Part shown: positions 2,843-13,882 of the stretch, in pieces
Position numbering within the stretch: the stretch's first letter is position 1
Layout: every line of letters starts with the position of its first letter
Assembly: GCF_000020025.1 (NCBI RefSeq)
Contig: NC_010628.1
Span: forward strand, 7,230,001 to 7,262,000
DNA length: 32,000 bases
Direction of reading: 5' to 3'
Origin: Nostoc punctiforme PCC 73102
GTDB taxonomy: Bacteria; Cyanobacteriota; Cyanobacteriia; Cyanobacteriales; Nostocaceae
Position numbers and translations under genes: made by a program
Notes under the pieces: model-generated
Database searches by the model: none
Told to the model about the DNA's origin: nothing
Seen by the model: the letters and a program-made list of their open reading frames with translations, nothing else

Positions 2843-3197
2843 CGTGGATTGGAGCATGAGCTAGCTGGTAGGTTTTGGTAAGGGTGCGATCGCGTTCTAC
2901 TTACAGGCTGAAACCCTAAGTTTGTCGTTGCCAACTGGAAAACCCTAATTTTGCAGTAAACTTTAAACTTTCTGCATAAATTCATTTAAATTTATTGACA
3001 GTACTATATGCTGACATTCTCACAGTTATAAATGTTGAGAAATTTATATTTAGCTTGCAAGATTTTCAGAGTTAAGCAATTAATAAATACTTATATTTAG
3101 GTATATTTAACCCTGTTTTTATTTTGAATTAACAACTCCTAATTAATATTGAAGCACGGTTTAATTTACTAACTACAAATAAAGGAGAGTAATTATT

Positions 3198-3689
3198 ATG
3201 ACAGTCAATTTTAAATCTATGTTAGTTCCACCAGGTAAGGGTTCCACTTATTTGGTGTTGGGTGACTTATATACTATTCTGGCTACAGGAAAAGATACAG
3301 GCGGAGAGTATGGGGTATACGAGGCTGTCATGCAACCGCAAAGTATGACACCACCTCACAGCCATGACCAAACAGACGAAGCGCACTACATTCTTGAGGG
3401 AGAGGTTGAGTACCAGATTGACGAGCAGACTATCGTTGCAACTCCCGGAACCTTCGTGAATTTTGCTAAAGGTCAATGTCATAGTTTTAAAAACATTGGG
3501 TCAAAACCTGCCAAAATGCTGACTTGGGTTACACCAGCAGGGGGTGAGCAGTTTTTTGTAGAGGCAGGGCAACCTGTAAACTTACCTTTGAATGAGGAAG
3601 AACGCTCTTTGTTGGGCGTTGTGAATCCTGCCGACTTTGAAAAAGCCGTTGCCATTGCCTCGAAGTATGTTCAATTCCCGACAAGTTGA
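3198..3689 (+). CDS. Cupin-domain protein
   Basis: Two-motif cupin signature (PPHSHDQTDEAHYILEGE ... GQCHSFKN). The Shine-Dalgarno-like AAAGGAGAG at 3181-3189 precedes the ATG. Confidence 0.8.
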   Translation: MTVNFKSMLVPPGKGSTYLVLGDLYTILATGKDTGGEYGVYEAVMQPQSMTPPHSHDQTDEAHYILEGEVEYQIDEQTIVATPGTFVNFAKGQCHSFKNIGSKPAKMLTWVTPAGGEQFFVEAGQPVNLPLNEEERSLLGVVNPADFEKAVAIASKYVQFPTS

Positions 3690-3758
3690 GGAAAAGTAGA
3701 ATTTCTTAAAGAAAGCAGGGAGCTGGGGAAGCTGGGAAGCCAGGGAAGCAAAGTTAAA

Positions 3759-3800
3759 AGGTGGATTCATCCAGTTCAAATACTCATTTTAATTTTAACT
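3759..3800. repeat. Collapsed two-unit copy of the 21-bp repeat element found at 4704-4871
   Basis: The sequence aggtggattcatccagttcaa|atactcattttaattttaact matches unit 2 (aggtgcattcatctagttcaa) and the terminal unit (atactcattttaattaaatca) of the downstream array. Confidence 0.6.
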
Positions 3801-3983
3801 TTTCATGGGATTTGAAAGGTCAAAAAGTATCACAGACAACAAAAGTTTTCTCAATCACCGCACCCAAGAAAACTTTCTGATTTATTCAAGACTGATAGCA
3901 TAGATTTAAAGACTTGTGGAATCTGCTCTTCCTAAACAGACTAGACTTGCATAAATTAATGTCAATAATTTTTGACTAACATT

Positions 3984-4463
3984 ATGAACCGCTTTACCTC
4001 TATTTTGCTCGCTGGCTTGATAGCATCTGCATCAGCTTTGGCTATTTCTCCAAAAGCTGAGGCTAATACACCAGCGTCTTATCTTGTTGAGTTAGATAAC
4101 TACAACTATCAACGCAACGATGATGGTAACTACGAACGTCATAGTCGTCACTACAGAAATGGTGATTATGACCGCCAGAACGACCTTCGCAACATTCGTG
4201 ACAACGATCGCCGTTATGACCGCGATAATAATCGCCGTTATGACCGCGACAATAATCGCCGATATGACCGCGACAATAATCGCCGATATGACCGCGACAA
4301 TAATCGCCGATATGACCGCGATAATAATCGCCGATATGACCGCGACAATAATCGCCGATATGACCGCGATAACGATCGCCGATATGACCGCGACAATAAC
4401 CTTCGTAACATTCGTGATAATAACTTTCGCTATGAACGCGATCGCAACTGGGGTCGTGATTAA
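3984..4463 (+). CDS. Secreted low-complexity protein with about 8 tandem RRYDRDN(N/D) octapeptide repeats
   Basis: Sec-type signal peptide (MNRFTSILLAGLIASASALAISPKAEA). The mature part consists almost entirely of R, D, N and Y. The ORF track start at 3972 is TTG; the in-frame ATG is at 3984. Confidence 0.7.
   Translation: MNRFTSILLAGLIASASALAISPKAEANTPASYLVELDNYNYQRNDDGNYERHSRHYRNGDYDRQNDLRNIRDNDRRYDRDNNRRYDRDNNRRYDRDNNRRYDRDNNRRYDRDNNRRYDRDNNRRYDRDNDRRYDRDNNLRNIRDNNFRYERDRNWGRD
4200..4391. repeat. 24-bp tandem repeat x8 inside the CDS (consensus gacaataatcgccgatatgaccgc)
   Basis: I counted eight head-to-tail units directly. They differ only at a few mostly synonymous positions (gat/gac, cgt/cga); the first and last units read DNDRRYDR rather than DNNRRYDR. 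Confidence 0.9.
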
Positions 4464-4703
4464 TCCCTGTGCCTATTTATTAAGCTTAGTTCCAAGTGAA
4501 CTGAGCATTGATTCTACTTGGCGCTAGGACAGACACAATCTCTTTTTCCACTCATTGCAATATCTGACTTTTCACTCTTCTCTGGAAAACCTCGCTTCCA
4601 TTCCCTAGTAATGAAGTTTGCTCAGGGCTTAGGTTTAGCGTTAGCTTTTTTACATGACGTGAAAAGTCAGATTTTTATTAAATCAAGAATTTACCTTCAA
4701 CCT

Positions 4704-4871
4704 AGACTCATTAATGGAGTTGAGAGGTGCATTCATCTAGTTCAAAGACTCATTAATGGAGTTCAAAGGCTCATTAATGGAGCTAAAAGACTCATTAATG
4801 AAGTTCAAAGACTCATTAATGAAGTTCAAAGGCTCATTAACGAAGCTAAAATACTCATTTTAATTAAATCA
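4704..4871. repeat. Intergenic 21-bp tandem repeat, about 8 units (consensus agRctcattaatgRagYtMaa)
   Basis: Units counted from 4704. The array lies in the convergent intergenic region between the stops at 4463 (+) and 4941 (-). Confidence 0.85.
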
Positions 4872-4904
4872 AAAATTTTTCCTCAGACTATAAGTCTCTT
4901 TCTT

Positions 4905-4932
4905 AATTACGAATTACGAATTACGAATTACA
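4905..4932. repeat. Heptanucleotide tandem repeat (AATTACG)x4
   Basis: Read directly: aattacg aattacg aattacg aattaca. It is the reverse complement of the AATTCGT arrays at 8403 and 13793. Confidence 0.9.
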
Positions 4933-4940
4933 AATTAATA

Positions 4941-7900
4941 TCACGACCTTGGTCGCAACAATTGCACAAAGGTATCACTCACAGTATGGTCTTTGGTATC
5001 GGCGGCGTATTGAACTAATTTTTCCTTTAGTTCTTTAGCAGCATCTAACGGGAGTAAGGTTGCTAGCAAAAAGTAGACACCACGAAAACGGGGGTCGTCC
5101 ATGTGGTCAAGGAGACGGTTTTTAGCTTCCTCACTCTCGCCGAGAAAGCTTTGCACCAAAAAAAAATCCATAATCTTATCGTGGCGGAAGTACCATTCTC
5201 TCTTGGCTTCGCCTTTTTCGTCTTGCCACTGACGGCTGACAACCATTTTATATTTATCGTCTTCCAAAGACTGTAATACCTGGTAAAATTCATCCGCAGG
5301 TAACGCCTGTTCATCATTCAGCCGCATTTGATAGACAGCATCGGAGAATTTTTTCAGAGGAAATTCTTGTTTCCATTCTTGCAAATATTCTGCTGCCATC
5401 AATTGATATTGATGTTGTTGCAAGTGAAACAAATCGGGGTATTCGCCTTGGGATAGCATCAGGGCTACCACAGTTAAATCCATTGGATTAGAGAGAACCT
5501 TCTCGATGGCGCTTAATTCTTGTGGTGATTGCTGATTACTAAGGGCTTTGGTTAAAAAACTAGCAGTGGCTTGCTCATAATCAGTACCTTGAACTTTGGC
5601 ATTTTTGGGCAGTCGTGGCTGACGGGAAATCAGAAATTGCTGAATTTGTGGTTCCTCAAGGGGCAGCAATTTATATATTTTGGCTGTTGAGGGTGGTGTC
5701 CACTCTAGCGGTTGGGTGGTCATGATGATGTTACCCCGGAAATAGCTTTCGGCAAACTGACAGATTTTTGCTCTAGTGTCGGCGGTAACTTCATTGAGTC
5801 CGTCAATGCAAATATCTAATGCGCCACTGTAAATTAAATTCTTGAGAAAATCAGCATCTTGTGCTTGTCCGTGCAGCTTGGCTTGAATTGCCTCAATTAC
5901 CCCTTTGTCACACTTGCGCGCAGGTAGATAAACCACAAGCCGCCCAGAAGTTTTTACCAAATAGCGCAGAAACATTGACTTACCCAAGCCAGAATCACCT
6001 TCTAAGATGACTTGTCCTTTGATGTTAGGTAGCACTTGAGTAATTTGTACGGGTTCGTCTACACCGGGAACTTTCACTTTAGAATTTGGGAAGTAAGCTT
6101 CGGGGTTAAAATTATCTAACCCGGCATCGGCTAGTAGGGAAGGCTTGAAGGGTTCAAATAACTTTTCGCGAAAAAAAGGAACCCAGGTGAGAATTAAGCC
6201 GACGTAGCCGACACCGAGAATACGCCTCACCCAAGGGTTCCAGAAGAAGATGGCTTGAACTTGGGGAAATTTGGGATAAGCAAAGATGAGGACAAGCCAA
6301 AAGGCAGCGTGAATCAAAATAGTAGTTCTGGCGTTGAACAACCACTGCCAAGTTTTGAGGTTAATTATTACTGATTGCAACGAATCAGCTTCGTTGTAGC
6401 CGACGTTTTTAAGGTTGTTGTAGTGAGTTTCTAAGATAACAATATCTTGTGGTTGCCAAGAGACTTTTCTCGCAACCACAGCAATTTGCTTTGCCAAGTC
6501 TTCCTGTAAACGCACTAATTCTTTACTAGGTTCCCAAATTTTGCGAAAAACCTCTAGTGTTTTCACTCCTTCATCGTGGTTTAGCTTCTCAGGAATTGTT
6601 TTAGGTCTGCCTAGCCATTTAAGCAGTGTTGTGACATCTTCAGTGCCACCCCCCAGAAAATATGTAGAGAATCGCCACTGTTGAAATTCAGATTGTCCCA
6701 CGTAATAAACGTTATCCAAAATGACAATAACGCTATTCAGGTCTAGTTGTTCTATTTTTTCTAAAGCTCTTGCAAGGTTAGAACGAAGTGAAGTTTCAAT
6801 AGATTTATCCTTGAGAATCTTAACAATATCTTTCACGTAAGGTTGAGCAACTTTTCCCAAATTACCTAAGGCATATACTGCCATTGATTTATCAACTTGA
6901 CTAGAGATTTGATTCTCAATGGTTTTATCTTGGATGAAATCGAGGATATCTTTGATATATGGTTGAGCTGCTTCTTCCAAGTAACTCAATGCATAAGCGG
7001 CGCTAGAGCGAAATGAAGGCTCAACAGATTTATCCTTAAGGATGTCAGTAATATCTTTGGCGTAAGGTTTAGCAGCATCTCCTAAATCGCTCAATGCATT
7101 AGCCGCACTGGAACGAAGCGAATTATCGACGGATTTATCCTTAAGGATGTCAGCAATATCTTTGACGTAGAGTTTAGCAGCATCTCCTAAATTGCTCAAT
7201 GCATTAGCCGCACTAGAACGAAGCGAATTATCGACGGATTTATCCTTAAGGATGTCAGCAATATCTTTGACGTAAGGTTTAGCAGCATCTCCTAAATTGC
7301 TCAATGCATTAGCCGCACTGGAACGAAGCGAATTATCGACGGATTTATCCTTAAGGATGTCAGCAATATCTTTGACGTAGAGTTTAGCAGCATCTCCTAA
7401 ATTATCTAAGGTAGGAGCTATCTGGGAACGAATAGCGGAGTCAACAGATTTATTTTTGAAGATATTAACAATATCTTGAGCGTAGGGTTGGGTAGCTTTT
7501 CCTGTGTTAACCAAAGCATCAACTACAGTGGAACGAACATCAACATCAACAGTTTTATCTTGAATGAAGTTGAGGATATCTTTGATGTATGGTTGGGTAG
7601 CTTGTCCGAAATATGCAAATACAAATGCTGCACGGGAGCGAACTTGGGCATCAGCTGTTTTATCTTTAAGGATGTTAGCAATCTCTTTGAGATAGGGTTT
7701 GGCAGCATCTCCCAGATTTGCTAGTGGGGAAAATCTACTAGCAGAATAGTTACCACTACTGAAATAAATAGTAATAGAGGAGTCGGTGTTTTTATGCTTA
7801 AGAAAATCGGTTATATCTTTGATATATGGTTTGGCCGGTTCTCCCAAGTTGGCCAATACCAATATCAAATTGAAACCAGTAGAAAAATCAACAGATTGAT

Positions 7901-8396
7901 CCTTAAGAATATCAACAATATCTTTGACGTAGGGTTTAGGAGCATCGCCCAAGTTTCCTAATACAGATGCTGCACCAGCGCGAACCGAAACTTTCACAGA
8001 TTTATCTTTAAGGATAGCTGCGATATCTTTGACATAGGGTTTAGCCAAATCCCCCAGATTGCTTAACGCGTATCCTGCACTAACACGAATCGATGTTGCA
8101 ACAGATTTATCTTTAAAAATACTGAGAATTTTTCTGGCTATGTCTTCTGGTTTTTTCACCAGAGTTTTTAAGTCTTGCATCTCATATTGACTGACTTGAT
8201 CCAGAGCCAGAGACTTCACTCCCTCATGTCTATCATCAAGAGCAGCAACAATACCGTTAATCTGCCATGCTTCTGGTTTAGGCTTGGGCTGTTCTTTGGC
8301 GCTTACCCAAGGCAGCGCGAGGAGGAGTGTCAATAGCAGGATAAAGGGAAAAAGGAAAAATGGCGACGATCGCTTTTTAATTATGTGCAGATACAT
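4941..8396 (-). CDS. Membrane-associated HEAT-repeat / NACHT-type (STAND) P-loop NTPase, 1151 aa
   Basis: N-terminal hydrophobic segment (KKRSSPFFLFPFILLLTLLLALPWVSA). About 13 HEAT/PBS-lyase-like repeats of roughly 35-37 aa follow (xKDIxxILKDKSVxxxxRxxAAxALxNLGxxAxPY), at nt ~6760-8150. Two hydrophobic helices lie at nt ~6170-6335. Walker A is GDSGLGKS (nt 5977-5999). The NACHT-style Walker B is LDICIDGLNEV (nt ~5791-5823). An IIMTTQP motif and an NPMDLTVVALM winged-helix-like motif are also present. Confidence 0.8.
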   Translation of the reverse strand: MYLHIIKKRSSPFFLFPFILLLTLLLALPWVSAKEQPKPKPEAWQINGIVAALDDRHEGVKSLALDQVSQYEMQDLKTLVKKPEDIARKILSIFKDKSVATSIRVSAGYALSNLGDLAKPYVKDIAAILKDKSVKVSVRAGAASVLGNLGDAPKPYVKDIVDILKDQSVDFSTGFNLILVLANLGEPAKPYIKDITDFLKHKNTDSSITIYFSSGNYSASRFSPLANLGDAAKPYLKEIANILKDKTADAQVRSRAAFVFAYFGQATQPYIKDILNFIQDKTVDVDVRSTVVDALVNTGKATQPYAQDIVNIFKNKSVDSAIRSQIAPTLDNLGDAAKLYVKDIADILKDKSVDNSLRSSAANALSNLGDAAKPYVKDIADILKDKSVDNSLRSSAANALSNLGDAAKLYVKDIADILKDKSVDNSLRSSAANALSDLGDAAKPYAKDITDILKDKSVEPSFRSSAAYALSYLEEAAQPYIKDILDFIQDKTIENQISSQVDKSMAVYALGNLGKVAQPYVKDIVKILKDKSIETSLRSNLARALEKIEQLDLNSVIVILDNVYYVGQSEFQQWRFSTYFLGGGTEDVTTLLKWLGRPKTIPEKLNHDEGVKTLEVFRKIWEPSKELVRLQEDLAKQIAVVARKVSWQPQDIVILETHYNNLKNVGYNEADSLQSVIINLKTWQWLFNARTTILIHAAFWLVLIFAYPKFPQVQAIFFWNPWVRRILGVGYVGLILTWVPFFREKLFEPFKPSLLADAGLDNFNPEAYFPNSKVKVPGVDEPVQITQVLPNIKGQVILEGDSGLGKSMFLRYLVKTSGRLVVYLPARKCDKGVIEAIQAKLHGQAQDADFLKNLIYSGALDICIDGLNEVTADTRAKICQFAESYFRGNIIMTTQPLEWTPPSTAKIYKLLPLEEPQIQQFLISRQPRLPKNAKVQGTDYEQATASFLTKALSNQQSPQELSAIEKVLSNPMDLTVVALMLSQGEYPDLFHLQQHQYQLMAAEYLQEWKQEFPLKKFSDAVYQMRLNDEQALPADEFYQVLQSLEDDKYKMVVSRQWQDEKGEAKREWYFRHDKIMDFFLVQSFLGESEEAKNRLLDHMDDPRFRGVYFLLATLLPLDAAKELKEKLVQYAADTKDHTVSDTFVQLLRPRS
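7026..7410. repeat. Intragenic 105-bp (35-aa) near-identical tandem repeat, about 3.7 copies
   Basis: The anchor ggatttatcc recurs at 7131, 7236 and 7341, with a diverged copy at 7026. Copies differ at only a few bases and encode VKDIADILKDKSVDNSLRSSAANALSNLGDAAK(P/L)Y. Confidence 0.9.
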
Positions 8397-8402
8397 TTGT
8401 AT

Positions 8403-8437
8403 AATTTGTAATTCGTAATTCGTAATTCGTAATTTCT
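8403..8437. repeat. Heptanucleotide tandem repeat (AATTCGT)x3 with degenerate flanking units
   Basis: Read directly: aatttgt aattcgt aattcgt aattcgt aatttct. It starts 7 nt upstream of the start codon at 8396. Confidence 0.9.
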
Positions 8438-8706: not shown

Positions 8707-9564
8707 ATGTCTTTTGATAACCTCTGCAAACTACTGTCCGAAAAACATCCTGCTACCTTTGCCAGTTGGGTTTTAGGTACACCACAAACTTCTGTCAAAG
8801 TCCTCAAAACCGAATTGAGCATTGAACCAATTCGCGCTGATTATGTAACATTCTTACAACTACAAGGACGCATTCTCCATCTGGAATTTCAAACCAAACT
8901 CGAATCTACGCCACCCCTACCCCTGCGGATGCTAGATTATTGGGTACGCTTATATCGTTTGTATCGTCTGCCAATAACGCAAGTTGTCGTATTATTGCTT
9001 CCCCCTGCACCAGGAACAGTAATTGAAACTGTTTTCTGTGTCGAAACTACCCGTCATGAATATCGCGTGATTCGCCTATGGGAAGAAAATCCTGAACTAT
9101 TCCTCAATGAGCCAGCTTTGTTACCCTTAGCACCACTGGCGGCAACCACGCAACCCCAAGCATTGTTGCAACAAGTTGTGGGCAAAGTTAATCAACTTGA
9201 GCCAAGACAACGACCAGAAATTTCCGCGTATACCCAAATCTTAGCGGGGTTAAAATACAATCAAGACTTGATTCGACAATTATTTCGGGAGGGTATGATG
9301 CGCGAGTCAGTAATTTATCAAGAAATTCTCGCTGAAGGCGAACAACTAGGAGAACTAAGAGGACGAAAAGCAGAAGGGCAATTGCTCATTCTCCGTCAAC
9401 TTACTCGACGGGTGGGAGAATTACCCCAAGAGATGCTAAACCGGATTGAAACTCTCTCCTTAGAACAATTAGAAAATCTCGGTGAAGCATTGTTAGATTT
9501 TCAGGCGATCGCGGATTTAGAAGCCTGGTTTGGTACATTAGACATAGGAGTGAAAATGACGTAA
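8707..9564 (+). CDS. Rpn-family recombination-promoting nuclease / putative transposase-like protein with a DUF4351-type C-terminus
   Basis: The N-terminus (MSFDNLCKLLSEKHPATFASWVLG...LKTELSIEPIRADYVTFLQ...ILHLEFQT) and the C-terminal ESVIYQEILAEGEQ...LSLEQLENLGEALLDF match my memory of a multi-copy cyanobacterial family. This is recognition by recall, not by search. Confidence 0.65.
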   Translation: MSFDNLCKLLSEKHPATFASWVLGTPQTSVKVLKTELSIEPIRADYVTFLQLQGRILHLEFQTKLESTPPLPLRMLDYWVRLYRLYRLPITQVVVLLLPPAPGTVIETVFCVETTRHEYRVIRLWEENPELFLNEPALLPLAPLAATTQPQALLQQVVGKVNQLEPRQRPEISAYTQILAGLKYNQDLIRQLFREGMMRESVIYQEILAEGEQLGELRGRKAEGQLLILRQLTRRVGELPQEMLNRIETLSLEQLENLGEALLDFQAIADLEAWFGTLDIGVKMT

Positions 9565-10432: not shown

Positions 10433-12958
10433 CTAAAATACGATAATCGCCCACATACTAGCTCCCAAAGCGATCGCTGCTAAGTGTTGCCAGAGGAGGG
10501 ATTTCACTGGTTGCCGTGCAATCTTTTGCGTTAATAACATAGTCATCAACACTGAGAAAATTATTGTTGTACCTTGCAAAAAGGCAATTACAGCCGGGTG
10601 AGCAACCAATATTGGCAATTGTTCACCACTCAAACCAAGGGTAGCAAAGGTAACAGGTAAAATTCGCCCACCTTCGCCTAAACCCAAACGCAGATAGTGA
10701 GCCAAGTTTCCCCCTAACACCAATGGTAGGTAGCTATACGCAAGTTCGACAAATTTTCGAGGCTTACGGTTAACGTTGAACACTTGTAGCAAGCCATAAG
10801 CCCCAAAGGTAAATATCGCTGGAATAATTAATACTAGCAGCGATAATCCGAAGTGCAGCCAAAACTGAGTTAAATCCAGTTGTAAACCCAACCAAGATTG
10901 CAATTCTGGCAAGCGATGCAGATATATCCCACCCAACAGCAAAAACAATAATGCTACTTCATAGGTGCGAGGTACATGAGTTGTCCACAATTCAATTCCA
11001 GGGGGACGCAAGTTGAACTCAACAGAACGATGGGGACAGGCTTTAAGGCAAGTCATACACAGTACGCAATCTCTGTTATCTTCTAATTGCGCTGGGTGAG
11101 AATACAAGGGACATCCATTAGTTTCTAGCCCTTCGCCCTTTTGCGGTCCACCTTTATAGCATTGATAAGTAGTACAACTAGCAGAACATATCCCTTGCTG
11201 TGCGCGAAGTTCCGTCATTGAAAGTTTGGCAAACAAACCATTCATTCCACCAATGGGGCAAAGATAACGACACCAAAACCGCCGCTCAAAAAGAGCAGAG
11301 AAAATCATCGCCCCAGCAGTAATTAATAGCAGCAAACAAGCACTGAGGTAGGCGGTATTTTCTAAATGCCAGAGTTCTTCCCATAAGAAAATTAGGGTGA
11401 ACAAACCAAACATGAACCATCCGCCCCATTTCTCAGCTTGCTCTCTCGGCCAGCGTTTGAGTTTTCGAGGCCACAGCCAGAGAGATAACTTTTGGGTAAT
11501 TTCCCCGTAAATCATGAAGGGACAAACAGAACACCAGATACGTCCCAAAAAGGGAAAGAGAAATAAGAAGAAAGGCCACCACCAAGCCCAAAATAGATTT
11601 AATACGAAATTGCGATCGCGGGTTTGCGGCCCAATAAATAAAACTGCAACAATAATCGCAAAAGCTGTTGCAGTAAAACCATAGTTAATGCGATCGGGCC
11701 ACCAAGGACTACGCAAAAACCGCCGCAAATTAGGATAGGCATTTAACAGATTCACCCGAAATCGTTTTTTCTTCGCTTCGGCTGGCCAGAAAATTTCTTC
11801 TGTTAATTCATTAGCACCTTCCGCTTGCACGATCGCTCTTTCAACCAGATTTTTCAATTCCTTGAGGTTCCCAGGAAAATCATAAGACTGGAGGCGACGC
11901 AAAGCTTCTGGGGTAATATGCGGTTTCGGAACGCCTCTAGAGCGAATGTAGAGACTTGTATAATACTCAACCTGCGCCTGAATATCAGCTTTCCGCACCC
12001 GTAGCGGCGGTACTTTAATAATGTGACCAATACAGCGTTCAATTGTCGGCTGAGTTTTTTCGGAAACAATCAGAATTCTGGCTTTACTAGGGCGAGGTTC
12101 CGGTGCTGGTTCTCCAGAACGAGCCACGGGGGTATATGTGCCAGTTTTGAGTAACTGCGTCACGGGAGGCAATAATTCTTCGGGCAATTCTTGGATGTTG
12201 TTGAGAACTAGAGTACCTTCCCCCAACCATTCCAATAGTCCTGGTTTACCGCCAGCGCGACCAAATAAGTCTGCGCCGCTAGTTTGCAGAATACCGCAAT
12301 TTACTTTAATGATTGGTTCTCGCCGTTTTGGAGAACCAAAGTGGATGAGAGCTGCTATATTGTCTTTTTCTAATCCTGGTTCTCCGAAAATATCCACTGA
12401 TTTGCGGTCAGCAGCCGCTTCTCGAATTTGCTCCCGCAGACGCACAGCATATCGACTTGTACCGACAATACCTCGTTGGGCTTTGGTAACTAAATATGGC
12501 CGCAAAGCTACAGAACGTTCTTGTTCATAGCCAAGTGCAGATGTTGCCTGAGCTAATTCTTGAGCCAATTGACGCGAAAAAGCCTGAGCAATTTCGGGGT
12601 ATTGGGTGACTAATTTCCGAAATTTATCAGCAGGTACAACCCACAAATGACATTCAGTTACTGTAGTAATTGTGAATGGAGTTAATTCTTCCAGCAGCAA
12701 TTCTTTGAGTTCAATCACTGCACCGGGGAGAAATCCACAAGCTAAGGCTGGGTTGCTTTGATTGGTGCTATTGCTTTCGAGTTGACCTTCTACAAGAATA
12801 TAAAGGGCTTCTGGAGAATTGCCTTCACTAACCAAGTCAGTTTCGGCTGGTACAACTTGTTCTTCAATTACTTGTGCGATCGCATTTAACACTTCAGGCG
12901 AGAGAATTCCTAAAGTGGTGCGTTCTTGTAGCCATATAACCGTTTCTGGAGATGTCAT
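10433..12958 (-). CDS. Fusion protein: cyclic-nucleotide-binding domain + degenerate sigma54-interaction-type AAA+ module + polytopic membrane domain with Fe-S cysteine motifs
   Basis: aa ~15-125 look like a cNMP-binding fold. aa ~163-380 are colinear with NtrC-type AAA+ domains (IVGTSRYAVRLREQI..., YDFPGNLKELKNLVERA). Within that module the P-loop is GEPGLEK (nt 12365-12385), Walker B is LVLNNI, and no GAFTGA motif is present. aa ~420-841 contain about 9-10 TM helices with WCSVCPF, FWCRYLCPIGG and CVLCMTCLKACP motifs (NapH/NosR-like plus ferredoxin-like). Confidence 0.8.
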   Translation of the reverse strand: MTSPETVIWLQERTTLGILSPEVLNAIAQVIEEQVVPAETDLVSEGNSPEALYILVEGQLESNSTNQSNPALACGFLPGAVIELKELLLEELTPFTITTVTECHLWVVPADKFRKLVTQYPEIAQAFSRQLAQELAQATSALGYEQERSVALRPYLVTKAQRGIVGTSRYAVRLREQIREAAADRKSVDIFGEPGLEKDNIAALIHFGSPKRREPIIKVNCGILQTSGADLFGRAGGKPGLLEWLGEGTLVLNNIQELPEELLPPVTQLLKTGTYTPVARSGEPAPEPRPSKARILIVSEKTQPTIERCIGHIIKVPPLRVRKADIQAQVEYYTSLYIRSRGVPKPHITPEALRRLQSYDFPGNLKELKNLVERAIVQAEGANELTEEIFWPAEAKKKRFRVNLLNAYPNLRRFLRSPWWPDRINYGFTATAFAIIVAVLFIGPQTRDRNFVLNLFWAWWWPFFLFLFPFLGRIWCSVCPFMIYGEITQKLSLWLWPRKLKRWPREQAEKWGGWFMFGLFTLIFLWEELWHLENTAYLSACLLLLITAGAMIFSALFERRFWCRYLCPIGGMNGLFAKLSMTELRAQQGICSASCTTYQCYKGGPQKGEGLETNGCPLYSHPAQLEDNRDCVLCMTCLKACPHRSVEFNLRPPGIELWTTHVPRTYEVALLFLLLGGIYLHRLPELQSWLGLQLDLTQFWLHFGLSLLVLIIPAIFTFGAYGLLQVFNVNRKPRKFVELAYSYLPLVLGGNLAHYLRLGLGEGGRILPVTFATLGLSGEQLPILVAHPAVIAFLQGTTIIFSVLMTMLLTQKIARQPVKSLLWQHLAAIALGASMWAIIVF

Positions 12959-13158: not shown

Positions 13159-13794
13159 ATGGCAATTTATCTAGACTCAGCGATCGCATCTGAAGCCAAA
13201 GTTGTTAAGCTTTGGGGATGGGTGAAAGGCATTACAACCAATCCCACGCTGTTGTCTCAAAGCGATACTCCACCAGAAACCACGCTCAAAAATTTGGTTG
13301 CCTTGACTTCTGGCCCTTTATATTATCAACTTGTGGCATCTGATAAAGCTGGGATGCTAGCTGAAGGTAGAAAAGCTTTCGAGATTATTGGTTCACAAAC
13401 AATTTTAAAGATTCCCGCAACACCGTTAGGTTTTGAAGTAGTGGCGAGTCTATCACCAGAAATTACCTGTTCAGTGACAGCAATTTACAGTGCAGCACAA
13501 GCAGCAGTAGCACGGGAGGCGGGAGCGAAAATTGCCATAGCTTATGTAAATCGAGCTACGCGGTTGTTAGGTGACGGTATTGCCTTAGTGCGGGATATGG
13601 CTAGCGTCCTCAAAGGCAGTGATACAGAGATTTTGGCAGCTAGTATCAAATCTCCTGAAGAAGCAGCCGCATCATTGCAAGCCGGGGCCCATCATTTGAC
13701 TTTACCATTGGCAATGTTGCAAGCGATCGCAACTCATGAATTTTCACAGAAAACGGTTGAAGAATTCGCTAAAGGAGGCATTGGTTTAAGATAA
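13159..13794 (+). CDS. Transaldolase / fructose-6-phosphate aldolase family protein (short form, 211 aa)
   Basis: GITTNPTLL and ILKIPAT (Schiff-base Lys context) motifs. The ORF track start at 13111 is GTG. The ATG at 13159 (MAIYLDS) fits the family N-terminus. Confidence 0.8.
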   Translation: MAIYLDSAIASEAKVVKLWGWVKGITTNPTLLSQSDTPPETTLKNLVALTSGPLYYQLVASDKAGMLAEGRKAFEIIGSQTILKIPATPLGFEVVASLSPEITCSVTAIYSAAQAAVAREAGAKIAIAYVNRATRLLGDGIALVRDMASVLKGSDTEILAASIKSPEEAAASLQAGAHHLTLPLAMLQAIATHEFSQKTVEEFAKGGIGLR

Positions 13795-13882
13795 TTCGTA
13801 ATTCGTAATTCGTAATTCGTAATTCGTAATTCGTAATGATACTCGTAGACTCGCTACCGCTACGCTAACGTAATTCGTAATT
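13793..13882. repeat. (AATTCGT)x5 heptamer array, interrupted by a ~38-bp dispersed repeat, then 2 more units
   Basis: 13793-13827 holds five perfect units. 13831-13868 reads gatactcgtagactcgctaccgctacgctaa. 13869-13882 reads cgtaattcgtaatt. The array overlaps the TAA stop of the preceding gene. Confidence 0.9.

Follow-up and report, generated by a model that had tools for sequence, protein, structure and literature searches.

The window, a stretch of 32,000 nucleotides of DNA from Nostoc punctiforme PCC 73102, carries a gene whose product combines an N-terminal array of HEAT-like repeats, a membrane anchor and a C-terminal NTPase module of the NACHT type of STAND proteins (Table 1). The open reading frame and this order of its parts agree with a preliminary description of the locus made from the sequence alone. 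The gene is bracketed by a perfect 33-nt inverted repeat. Its neighbors in the window are genes for ThrRS, a cupin, transaldolase, a CHASE2 kinase and sulfonate transport, and a divergent open reading frame (8707..9564) is separated from it by 310 bp. Rfam detected no RNA family in the window. In the literature searched, no description of the exact architecture, a putatively exported HEAT array followed by a membrane span and a NACHT module, was found.

Table 1. Features of the gene and of the repeat that flanks it
Feature	Position	Strand	Remarks
Whole gene	4941..8396	-	1151 aa + stop codon; at least 50 loci with full-length relatives
Residues 1-33, predicted Sec-type signal peptide	8298..8396	-	Kept in all full-length relatives
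Residues 34-118, N-terminal solenoid cap	8043..8297	-	Family-wide W-Q-I-x-G (44-48)
Residues 119-552, HEAT array	6741..8042	-	12 HEAT_PBS-type units of ~35 aa
Four tandem 105-bp copies in the HEAT array	6985..7403	.	92% matches; residues ~338-442
Residues 553-686, helical juxtamembrane domain	6339..6740	-	Exported side (predicted)
Residues 687-707, TM-A	6276..6338	-	Sole convincing transmembrane helix; conserved H..FW..LI..YP
Residues 708-745, most conserved stretch of the family	6162..6275	-	Contains the second hydrophobic segment, 726-742
Residues 746-1151, NACHT-type STAND module	4944..6161	-	NBD, helical domain, winged helix, C-terminal helical bundle
Inverted repeat, 33-nt arm, heptamer (AATTACG)n array	4905..4937	.	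4 nt past the stop codon
Inverted repeat, other 33-nt arm	8402..8434	.	5 nt upstream of the start codon

The NTPase module

The C-terminal part of the protein contains a Walker A motif (GDSGLGKS, residues 800-807), a Walker B motif (LDICIDGLNE, 860-869), TTQP (893-896), SNPMDL (969-974) and FRHDKIMDFF (1070-1079, with FRHD at 1070-1073). The motifs on which the preliminary description had based its assignment (GDSGLGKS, DGLNE and NPMDL) are all present, and their key residues do not vary in the family. In alignments with 19 and with 47 relatives, S, G, G and K of Walker A do not vary; N-P-M and the winged-helix histidine (H1072 in FRHD) are family-invariant as well. In NACHT proteins, as reportedly described by Koonin and Aravind in 2000, the Mg-binding aspartate of Walker B is followed by a tiny residue and then by acidic ones (D-[GAS]-h-D-E). 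The Nostoc sequence, D865-G-L-N-E, has the tiny residue and one of the two downstream acidic residues, and its D, N and E are invariant.

The secondary structure elements of the AlphaFold2 model follow the order NBD, helical domain, winged helix, and the C-terminal 60 residues form a helical bundle. A Foldseek search with the predicted model (pLDDT 83) placed NLR-family proteins at all of ranks 1-13 (NLRC4, NOD2, NLRP3 and related chains; E 3e-8 to 5e-5, about 450-490 aligned columns), and ORC/RFC ranked next. NLRC4 was the first match of the family profile to PDB sequences (E 1.2e-4) and was reached by the family profile only; a single-sequence search of the same set gave nothing meaningful. 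The Pfam NACHT model PF05729 aligns to the P-loop region only and does not reach its threshold (13.6 vs 26.7 bits, E 0.059), and the NACHT assignment therefore rests on the predicted-fold and profile matches. The NACHT label of the preliminary description thus failed at the Pfam cut-off and held in these two comparisons. Some relatives carry a precomputed PF05729 match. On this evidence the nearest relatives of the NTPase within the STAND and AAA+ clades appear to be the NACHT proteins.

The constant half of the family lies outside the Pfam, NCBIfam and PADLOC models, which detected no domain besides the HEAT repeats and the NTPase, and no fused effector domain. PADLOC found similarity in the HEAT region only (RT_UG20, 3.2e-6; HEAT_CxxC_PDDEXK, 2.2e-4) and nothing for the NTPase. 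A KAP P-loop NTPase was also considered and rejected because the membrane segments are wrongly placed: the two hydrophobic segments precede Walker A by 58-110 residues instead of lying between Walker A and Walker B. The Pfam scan gave no KAP match.

Putative export signal and membrane topology

The protein begins with MYLHIIKKRSS, which is followed by 20 hydrophobic residues and by P-W-V-S-A-K-E. By inspection, KKR forms the n-region, the hydrophobic run the h-region and P-W-V-S-A the c-region of a signal peptide, with predicted cleavage between VSA and KE; the same basic, hydrophobic and VSA elements had been picked out in the preliminary description. Distant relatives have textbook AXA signal peptides ahead of the same TM+NACHT cassette, and in some of them GspD-N0 or PDZ+N0 takes the place of HEAT. 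GspD-N0 and PDZ domains are typically periplasmic. The N-terminus of the Nostoc protein is likely a Sec-type signal peptide.

Both of the central hydrophobic segments reported earlier exist (~688-707 and ~726-742), but only the first, TM-A, has a TM-like hydropathy (KD 1.65 vs <1.4). Summed on the Hessa scale, the second segment comes to about +7 (19-mer) and TM-A to +1.3. AlphaFold2 places TM-A within one continuous 41-residue helix and breaks the second segment into short helices with pLDDT <50. The second segment, about 17 residues long, is weakly hydrophobic and basic on both flanks; in a few relatives its KD rises to 2.0, at which it would count as a TM helix. The stretch around it has the motif PxxxxVQAxFFWNPWVRR - xGxGYVGxxLTWVPF - RRKLFxPF. 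The loop after TM-A contains on average 3.2 K+R and 0.1 D+E, and K+R is 3.6 after the second segment. Cysteines are absent from residues 1-686, and three are present in the C-terminal part.

The second segment may be read as lying at the cytoplasmic face of the membrane or as re-entrant, rather than as spanning. Because the N-terminus probably carries a signal peptide and only the first central segment looks like a true span, the HEAT arm most likely faces the periplasm, with a single membrane helix and the NACHT module inside the cell. Of the two options that the preliminary description had left, a cytoplasmic HEAT array or an odd number of spans, the latter is favored by the conserved signal peptide-like N-terminus, the one convincing span and the positive-inside loops.

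The HEAT array and its hypervariable positions

The repeats score above the Pfam thresholds of HEAT_PBS (1.6e-14, 53.1 vs 20.9 bits), HEAT_2 (3.6e-13, 50.1 vs 27.7 bits) and HEAT_EZ (2.7e-10). The array consists of 12 units with a K-P-Y-x-K-D-I anchor, 10 of them exactly 35 aa long, and of an N-terminal cap, so that the earlier count of about 13 was a fair one. Residues 34-686 are modeled by AlphaFold2 as an all-helical solenoid (pLDDT 81.8), which matches karyopherin, importin and CAND1. The scores and the predicted alpha-solenoid fold indicate HEAT-like repeats of the PBS-lyase type. The four tandem 105-bp copies are recently duplicated or homogenized units.

Within the unit, the helix-B positions 18, 19, 22, 23 and 26 are hypervariable (entropy 2.2-3.2 bits), and most of the other 30 positions have the consensus residue in 75-100% of the units. 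At these five positions, which were picked after looking at the data, the ratio of per-site dN to pooled dS is 2.4-3.4; it is below 1 at 27 of the 30 others. Identity between strains is 11-47% at the hypervariable positions vs 60-93% in the scaffold in 50 of 51 pairs, the exceptional pair (L013/L064) having 71% and 93%, respectively. In the gene of the window itself dN is close to dS at the hypervariable sites (0.87 vs 0.83, saturated). The number of units varies from 4 to 13 among loci with a C-terminal module 85-97% identical to that of the window; in draft or MAG assemblies some of the repeats may have been collapsed. Differences from repeat to repeat in one protein are expected whenever a repeat protein binds an asymmetric ligand. 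In the alphaRep HEAT-like proteins, the binding surface seen in crystal complexes is made up of these structural positions (PMC3754942).

The gene is, judging from its divergence along the sequence, a mosaic of a constant TM+NACHT cassette and a variable exported cassette. Outside the repeats, dS amounts to 0.62-0.83 in the exported cassette vs 0.15-0.17 in TM+NACHT, and a sharp step in identity marks a recombination breakpoint near codon 630-644 (about nt 6465-6507), inside the juxtamembrane domain. TM+NACHT is 66-97% identical across filamentous cyanobacteria, with dN/dS of about 0.07-0.12. Typical defence genes evolve fast, unlike this strongly conserved half. The hypervariable, recombining and apparently exported HEAT cassette suggests a role in recognition.

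Family and gene neighborhood

The family comprises 860 clusters at 50% identity and is found in filamentous cyanobacteria, Corallococcus, Planctomycetota, Entotheonellia, Bipolaricaulia and Competibacteraceae, with at least two paralogues kept per genome. A second profile search returned mostly the same cyanobacterial set, and in a third one generic HEAT proteins swamped the list after about 26 true members. The NACHT cassette, being conserved, syntenic and present in several paralogues, resembles core genes more closely than typical defence genes. It is unlikely that the gene was brought in by phage, as 2.9 million viral contigs gave one match, a contig of 74,417 bp, the same size as the Corallococcus carmarthensis contig that carries the relative P0154.

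The divergent open reading frame has a clear DUF4351 match (6.8e-24). Its alignment to the Rpn model TIGR01784 of NCBIfam spans residues 4-257 of the protein, with E 1.3e-4 and 21.9 bits against a cut-off of 52.1. The divergent Rpn-like pairing of the preliminary description is thus correct as to the gap and below the cut-off as to the family. An Rpn-like neighbor occurs in 24 of 80 loci, all of them close Nostoc orthologues. Aulosira (L030) and Nostoc CCCryo (L022) lack it but keep the next gene, and in L054 it is rearranged. The neighbor is missing from all paralogue loci and distant relatives. On these comparative grounds the Rpn-like gene was rejected as a functional partner and is probably a lineage-specific passenger.

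All-against-all clustering of 1348 ORFs from the 80 loci gave no conserved neighbor. Nor did a neighbor prove conserved across 10 diverse loci, where no PADLOC family recurred in more than two of 88 neighbor ORFs and the Pfam content is housekeeping; the proposed enrichment in defence islands was not borne out there. The surrounding genes are housekeeping or metabolic ones, and within Nostoc the gene stays in synteny with housekeeping genes. The gene contexts of the Competibacteraceae relative and of a distant relative also differ, and a TIR gene and an endonuclease gene lie nearby in one distant locus.

Possible function

It is somewhat probable that the protein is a single-pass transmembrane NLR-like receptor, the exported and diversifying HEAT sensor of which recognizes non-self. 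The signal peptide would send the N-terminal ~650 residues, with the HEAT solenoid, into the periplasm or perhaps into the thylakoid lumen. The helix 687-707 would cross the membrane, and the conserved aromatic and basic segment followed by the NACHT module would lie in the cytoplasm. The exported solenoid would serve as the recognition surface and would diversify by gain and loss of repeat units, by substitution at five helix-B positions per unit, and by recombination of the whole exported cassette onto the constant TM+NACHT cassette. A ligand bound outside might alter the juxtamembrane helices and release the NACHT switch through ADP to ATP exchange and oligomerization. As there is no recognizable effector domain, the output might come from the clustered membrane segments, by permeabilization as in plant resistosomes, or from an unlinked partner. 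The likely role is recognition of phage, competitor or kin in multicellular bacteria. The conflict or defence role suggested in the preliminary description is thus plausible in view of the hypervariable HEAT array, and its argument from the nuclease neighbor fails.

A placement of the HEAT array in the cytoplasm is improbable. The N-terminal segment would then be a reverse anchor or not inserted, and the central segments would form a helical hairpin that returns the chain to a likewise cytoplasmic NACHT module. Most PBS-lyase-type HEAT proteins characterized so far do sit in the cytoplasm, and the relatives with a strongly hydrophobic second segment fit such a hairpin. The KKR N-terminus and the basic loop would face outwards, against the positive-inside rule, and the cleavable signal peptides of relatives, the N0 or PDZ domains in the same position and the short, basic-flanked and poorly modeled second segment all argue against it. 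Still less credible is a defence system of two genes in which the divergent Rpn-like/DUF4351 gene supplies the nuclease effector: the shared 310-bp region and the weak full-length Rpn match speak for it, and against it stand the patchy occurrence of the neighbor, its losses and rearrangement, its absence from paralogues and distant relatives, and the low Rpn score.

The recognition of non-self has itself to be weighed against a non-immune role, which is not very likely. The protein would then act in signaling or as a scaffold at the envelope of multicellular bacteria, filamentous ones included, with NACHT as a regulatory switch and a HEAT solenoid whose ligand is a polymer or protein of the cell's own periplasm (cell wall, septal or exopolysaccharide machinery). 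The repeats would vary through concerted evolution and relaxed constraint rather than through an arms race. The conservation of TM+NACHT across many genera, the housekeeping synteny and the paralogues in each genome agree with this. So does the absence of an effector and of a defence context. This absence, the lack of a conserved partner and of a PADLOC match, and the core-gene-like cassette count against an immune receptor. Among STAND proteins, clades without a defence role are known to lie scattered between defence clades (10.64898/2026.01.04.697583). An endogenous conserved ligand, however, should keep the binding surface constant. The elevated dN/dS is confined to the known binding face, identity at the hypervariable sites is near random between closely related strains, the exported cassette is swapped by recombination, and the type of sensor is swapped within the family.

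A more specific version of the receptor reading is rather doubtful. It combines the topology of a Toll-like receptor with NLR parts: foreign proteins that reach the periplasm would be sensed there by an exported HEAT surface, alphaRep-like and specific to the strain, NACHT would oligomerize at the cytoplasmic face, and the membrane-spanning and re-entrant segments, conserved in the protein itself, would assemble into a resistosome-like pore, so that sensor, switch and effector are one polypeptide. Candidate ligands would be phage tail or lysis proteins, competitor toxins and non-kin material in the shared periplasm of the filament.

To our knowledge, the characterized NLR-like defence proteins of bacteria sense phage proteins in the cytoplasm. 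If the receptor reading is true, NLR-type surveillance extends to the periplasm through a diversifying sensor outside the cytoplasmic membrane, and the array is a natural in vivo case of the diversification of the alphaRep binding surface. The clean split between constant signaling and swappable sensor cassettes makes the idea directly testable by domain swaps. A link of NLR expansion with multicellularity in bacteria has been proposed, and the occurrence of the family in filamentous cyanobacteria, myxobacteria and planctomycetes is relevant to it.

Comparison with known systems

The bacterial bNACHT proteins mostly have C-terminal sensors and N-terminal effectors, and the survey of Kibby et al. 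includes a class with 'TM regions', for which sensing of membrane or periplasmic signals was proposed (bioRxiv 10.1101/2022.07.19.500537). The Nostoc protein shares with them the NACHT-type STAND module, repeat 'antigen receptor' sensors that include HEAT, and enrichment with paralogues in cyanobacteria and other multicellular bacteria. It differs in that its sensor is N-terminal, behind a putative signal peptide and predicted to be exported, with a single span before NACHT, and in that it has no effector domain, Pfam NACHT pass, PADLOC match or defence-island location.

NLRC4, NOD2 and NLRP3 are the best predicted-fold match over NBD, HD1, WHD and HD2 as well as the best profile match, and they share the Walker B pattern D-G-h-x-E and the conserved winged-helix histidine. 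Identity is 11-15%, however, and the animal proteins are soluble proteins of the cytosol that carry LRRs at the C-terminus and a CARD or PYD at the N-terminus. The sensor-1 position is an invariant Gln (TTQP) in the Nostoc family.

Fungal NLRs have highly internally conserved (HIC) WD, ANK or TPR repeats with a few positively selected positions on the binding face. Near-identical tandem units, a varying number of units and a few variable binding-face positions are common to both, but the Nostoc repeats are HEAT, N-terminal and predicted to be exported, whereas the fungal proteins are cytosolic. The alphaRep proteins (PMC3754942) agree with the Nostoc array in the motif xxVRxxAAxALGxxG and in the variable positions 18, 19, 22, 23 and 26. 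Their unit is 31 aa long vs 35 aa in Nostoc, position 30 is not among the variable ones in Nostoc, and the Nostoc array is joined to a membrane NTPase.

The predicted order of a signal peptide, an extracytoplasmic solenoid sensor, a single span and a cytoplasmic signaling module is that of Toll-like receptors and plant receptor kinases. This likeness is one of analogy without homology, as the signaling module of the Nostoc protein would be an NLR-type NTPase rather than a TIR domain or a kinase.

Gene organization and neighborhood

The open reading frame, HEAT repeats, hydrophobic segments, motifs and 310-bp divergent gap of the HEAT-NACHT gene were accurately given in the preliminary description (see the table). 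HEAT_PBS, HEAT_2 and HEAT_EZ all exceed their Pfam cut-offs, at about residues 100-600 of the product. The protein starts with MYLHIIKKRSS, 20 hydrophobic residues and P-W-V-S-A/K-E. An N-terminal cap precedes the HEAT array, in which 12 units with a K-P-Y-x-K-D-I anchor were delimited by eye (residues 119-552), ten of them exactly 35 residues long. Two hydrophobic segments follow, at about residues 688-707 (TM-A) and 726-742.

Features of the HEAT-NACHT gene and its surroundings (nucleotides are those of the window, residues and codons those of the HEAT-NACHT gene)
Feature	Position	Strand	Remarks
ORF with signal peptide-like start	3972-4463	+	163 aa; convergent to the HEAT-NACHT gene
21-bp (and 63-bp) tandem repeats	4704-4859		between the 163-aa repeat-protein gene and the HEAT-NACHT 3' end
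33-nt perfect inverted repeat	4905-4937 and 8402-8434		AATTACG heptamers; brackets the HEAT-NACHT gene
HEAT-NACHT ORF	4941..8396	-	1151 aa
Recombination breakpoint	~6465-6507		codons 630-644
Four consecutive tandem 105-bp DNA copies	6985-7403		92% identical; within the HEAT array
GDSGLGKS	residues 800-807		Walker A
LDICIDGLNE	residues 860-869		Walker B
SNPMDL	residues 969-974		
FRHDKIMDFF	residues 1070-1079		additional to the motifs of the preliminary description
Divergent ORF with DUF4351 (6.8e-24)	8707..9564	+	Rpn-like gene; 310 bp from the HEAT-NACHT gene
cNMP-binding, sigma-54-interaction AAA+ with lid, C-terminal polytopic membrane region	10433-12958	-	841 aa

The arms of the inverted repeat are located 4 nt past the stop codon and 5 nt ahead of the start codon, and the mRNA ends could pair as a 33-bp duplex (-43.9 kcal/mol versus -7.2 +/- 2.7 for shuffled sequences). 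The AATTACG array, which is probably a STRR-type Nostocales repeat, is also found after the transaldolase gene (13790-13838) and at corresponding sites beside some orthologues, on both sides in one of them (locus L008). A probably spurious ORF with RLINEVQ repeats (4518..5018) reads through the 21-bp array. The 163-aa ORF contains eight tandem N-N-R-R-Y-D-R-D octapeptides (24-bp DNA repeat at 4200-4399, 92% matches), has no match in Pfam, and is kept downstream of the HEAT-NACHT gene in about 20 close Nostoc loci. The 841-aa protein has an unusual domain combination, with 4Fe-4S (Fer4_5) motifs in the membrane region, and is 84-97% identical at syntenic loci.

A defence role had been proposed from the pairing with the Rpn-like gene, whose full-length match to the Rpn family model is weak and under threshold. 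This argument fails, because the pairing is confined to the window gene's own Nostoc orthologues (24 of the 80 fetched loci) and no neighbor is conserved: clustering of 1348 ORFs from the 80 loci gave no neighbor family common beyond local synteny. The Rpn-like gene was not found at any locus of the second paralogue group. Aulosira (L030) and Nostoc CCCryo (L022) lack it but keep the next flanking gene, and in another locus (L054) it is moved or rearranged; such patchy presence in otherwise syntenic Nostoc loci fits a mobile or decaying element. Its matches are truncated in L008, L010, L032 and L062.

Enrichment in defence islands was likewise not borne out, as among 88 neighbor ORFs from 10 diverse loci each Pfam or PADLOC family is seen at most twice. 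The neighbors at these loci are housekeeping genes (Gly-tRNA synthetase, PntB, Mur ligase and others). Those in the window encode ThrRS, a cupin, the secreted repeat protein, the cNMP/sigma-54-type/4Fe-4S membrane protein, transaldolase, a CHASE2 Ser/Thr kinase and sulfonate-uptake proteins. The contexts of the Competibacteraceae relative and of another distant relative are unrelated. The sole defence-like neighborhood observed is that of the distant relative P0224 (locus L082), where genes for a TIR-domain protein and an Endonuclease_NS (2953-6089 of that locus) lie 2-5 kb upstream.

The NTPase module and its family

The claim that the NTPase core is of the NACHT class does not hold at the Pfam threshold and is upheld by the predicted fold and by profile matches to NLRs. 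The Pfam NACHT model matches the P-loop only, at 13.6 bits where 26.7 are required; the AAA_16 and AAA_22 matches are as weak, and NCBIfam and PADLOC give nothing further for this half. The AlphaFold2 model of residues 641-1151, built from 47 sequences (pLDDT 83, pTM 0.70), has a P-loop alpha/beta domain, a helical domain, a winged helix (two strands plus helices) and a C-terminal helical bundle, in this order. When this model is compared with the PDB by Foldseek, ranks 1-13 are all NLR-family chains, NLRC4, NOD2 and NLRP3 among them (E 3e-8 to 5e-5, about 450-490 aligned columns), followed by ORC and RFC AAA+ proteins. Independently of the fold comparison, the best PDB sequence for an HMM of 19 diverse family members is NLRC4 (E 1.2e-4), with a match running from N-terminal of Walker A up to the sensor-1 strand. 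Across the family there is no variation in Walker A (S-G-x-G-K), Walker B (D...N-E), N-P-M or the FRHD His. Because of these fold and profile matches and the invariant motifs, the NTPase half is accepted as a predicted NACHT-type STAND module despite its Pfam score, with the caveats that the fold matches are those of a predicted structure and that an invariant Gln takes the place of Arg at the sensor-1 position.

Grouped at 50% identity, the family defined by the TM+NACHT cassette comprises 860 clusters, 486 of them with E <1e-30. The cassette is C-terminal in every case and is preceded by about 100-1250 residues. The named cyanobacterial members come from filamentous forms (Nostoc, Anabaena, Dolichospermum, Calothrix, Rivularia, Scytonema, Tolypothrix, Microseira, Coleofasciculaceae and Phormidesmis); named members from elsewhere belong to Corallococcus, Planctomycetota, Entotheonellia, Bipolaricaulia and Competibacteraceae. 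Several Nostocales genomes carry a pair of paralogues whose modules share about 75-80% identity with that of the window. Among 2.9 million viral contigs, only one has a family member.

Membrane topology

The same kind of N-terminal segment starts every full-length relative, at least 50 loci, and in distant representatives (41-60% identity) it is a textbook signal peptide, for example ...LLLANPVQA/EC and ...LFAGNAWA/KTC. In three distant members (P0208, P0175 and P0262) the HEAT array is replaced by a GspD-type N0 domain or by PDZ plus N0, positioned between the signal peptide and the shared TM-NACHT cassette (Pfam E 2e-23, 4e-20 and 4e-7). N0 and PDZ domains are periplasmic as a rule. The signal peptides of the relatives and these substitutions suggest that the N-terminal part is exported; as the three proteins bear N0, with or without PDZ, where HEAT otherwise stands, sequence comparison indicates that sensors are swapped within the family.

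The two hydrophobic segments were compared in 127 family members by summed biological hydrophobicity (scale of Hessa et al.). TM-A scores +1.3, versus +7.2 (as a 19-mer) or +3.2 (as a 17-mer) for the second segment. Lys+Arg averages 3.2 and Asp+Glu 0.1 in the 18-residue loop between them; Lys+Arg is 3.6 in the 20 residues C-terminal to the second segment. In the AlphaFold2 model TM-A lies within a single unbroken 41-residue helix, and the second segment forms short helices with pLDDT <50. The exported part has no cysteines and the cytoplasmic part has three. The preliminary description had left a choice between a cytoplasmic HEAT array and an odd number of spans. The signal-peptide relatives, the N0/PDZ swaps, the segment scores, the charges and the model favor the latter, and the simplest reading is a predicted single span once the signal peptide is cleaved, with HEAT outside and NACHT inside. 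The outside would be the periplasm or the thylakoid lumen. The second segment and its flanks (FFWNPWVRR...GxGYVG..LTWVPF.RRKLF.PF), the most conserved stretch family-wide, probably lie on the cytoplasmic face of the membrane or enter it partway.

A mosaic gene with a variable HEAT array

The window's TM+NACHT cassette (464 aa) is 97% identical to its closest orthologues, gap-free, and under strong constraint (dN/dS 0.07-0.12). The corresponding identities in the exported part are 67-71% (N-cap), 55-60% (HEAT array) and 74-77% (juxtamembrane domain). dS is about fourfold higher in the exported non-repeat parts (0.62-0.83) than downstream (0.15-0.17), and DNA identity rises from 65-80% to 93-98% at the breakpoint (full ranges on either side 60-81% and 90-100%), which falls where the region alignable across the whole family begins. 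The dS contrast and this sharp step identify the gene, at the sequence level, as a recombinant mosaic. The donor of the exported cassette is absent from the 80 fetched loci.

In 202 exact 35-aa HEAT units from 32 genes (192 distinct), the scaffold is well kept, most positions being 75-100% conserved. Positions 18, 19, 22, 23 and 26 hold 14-16 residue types (entropy 2.2-3.2 bits); in a model of residues 34-686, unit positions 18-29 fall in helix B. Within-gene unit pairs have a dN of 0.56-0.87 at the five positions and a scaffold dS of 0.125-0.35. Omega at these positions, which were chosen post hoc from the data themselves, is 1.6-4.9 in five other genes (2.5 pooled) and about 1 in the window's own, more diverged array, some divergence between repeats of a single protein being expected anyway. 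Per-site dN over pooled dS at the five positions is 3.35, 2.47, 2.69, 2.42 and 2.93, respectively; it also exceeds 1 at position 8 (3.2) and positions 34-35 (1.25-1.55) and is <1 at the 27 others. Of 51 strain pairs matched for unit number, 50 share 11-47% of residues at the five positions versus 60-93% in the scaffold; the exceptional pair (L013/L064) has 71% and 93%. Among loci with C-terminal modules 85-97% identical to the window's, the unit count varies from 4 to 13. Repeats may be collapsed in draft assemblies, but each of the two near-complete genomes has 11 units, 11 and 10 of them, respectively, exactly 35 aa long.

Possible mechanism and comparison with known systems

These results strongly support an exported HEAT solenoid, a single span and a NACHT-type module in the cytoplasm whose nucleotide-binding motifs are intact; the signaling cassette is constant and the sensor cassette is variable and recombining. 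Binding of a ligand on the exported side would be transmitted through the last two exported helices, which are conserved, to TM-A, the membrane-proximal segment and then the NACHT switch, which would oligomerize. The protein has no effector domain. The most economical guess for the output is that the membrane segments might cluster into a membrane lesion, as they are extremely conserved and are positioned like the pore helices of plant CC-NLRs, which are directly N-terminal to the NBD. Alternatively, an unlinked partner could be recruited. The main rival to an immune receptor is a non-immune envelope signaling protein. The conservation, synteny and genomic context favor this rival, and the diversification of the binding face counts against it.

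The published literature already covers bacterial NACHT proteins, their repeat-type 'antigen receptor' sensors, variants with TM regions, and the idea that sensing may take place in the periplasm. In the literature searched there was no account of a signal peptide, an N-terminal hypervariable HEAT array, a single span and an effector-less NACHT module in one protein, and the arrangement is missed by the Pfam NACHT model and by PADLOC. With the function standing as a proposal, the arrangement makes NLR sensing toward the periplasm testable.

Positions 18, 19, 22, 23 and 26 are variable in natural HEAT-like repeats and were randomized in the alphaRep libraries, where crystal structures show that they make up the binding surface (PMC3754942). 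Aligned on the motif xxVRxxAAxALG, the five hypervariable positions of the present family coincide exactly with them. Fungal NLR sensors are known by their repeats, which are highly conserved internally apart from a few positions under positive selection, and a similar signature has been proposed for bacterial NLR repeats (10.1101/2020.01.06.895854); the HEAT units described here likewise combine conserved repeats with a few hypervariable positions.
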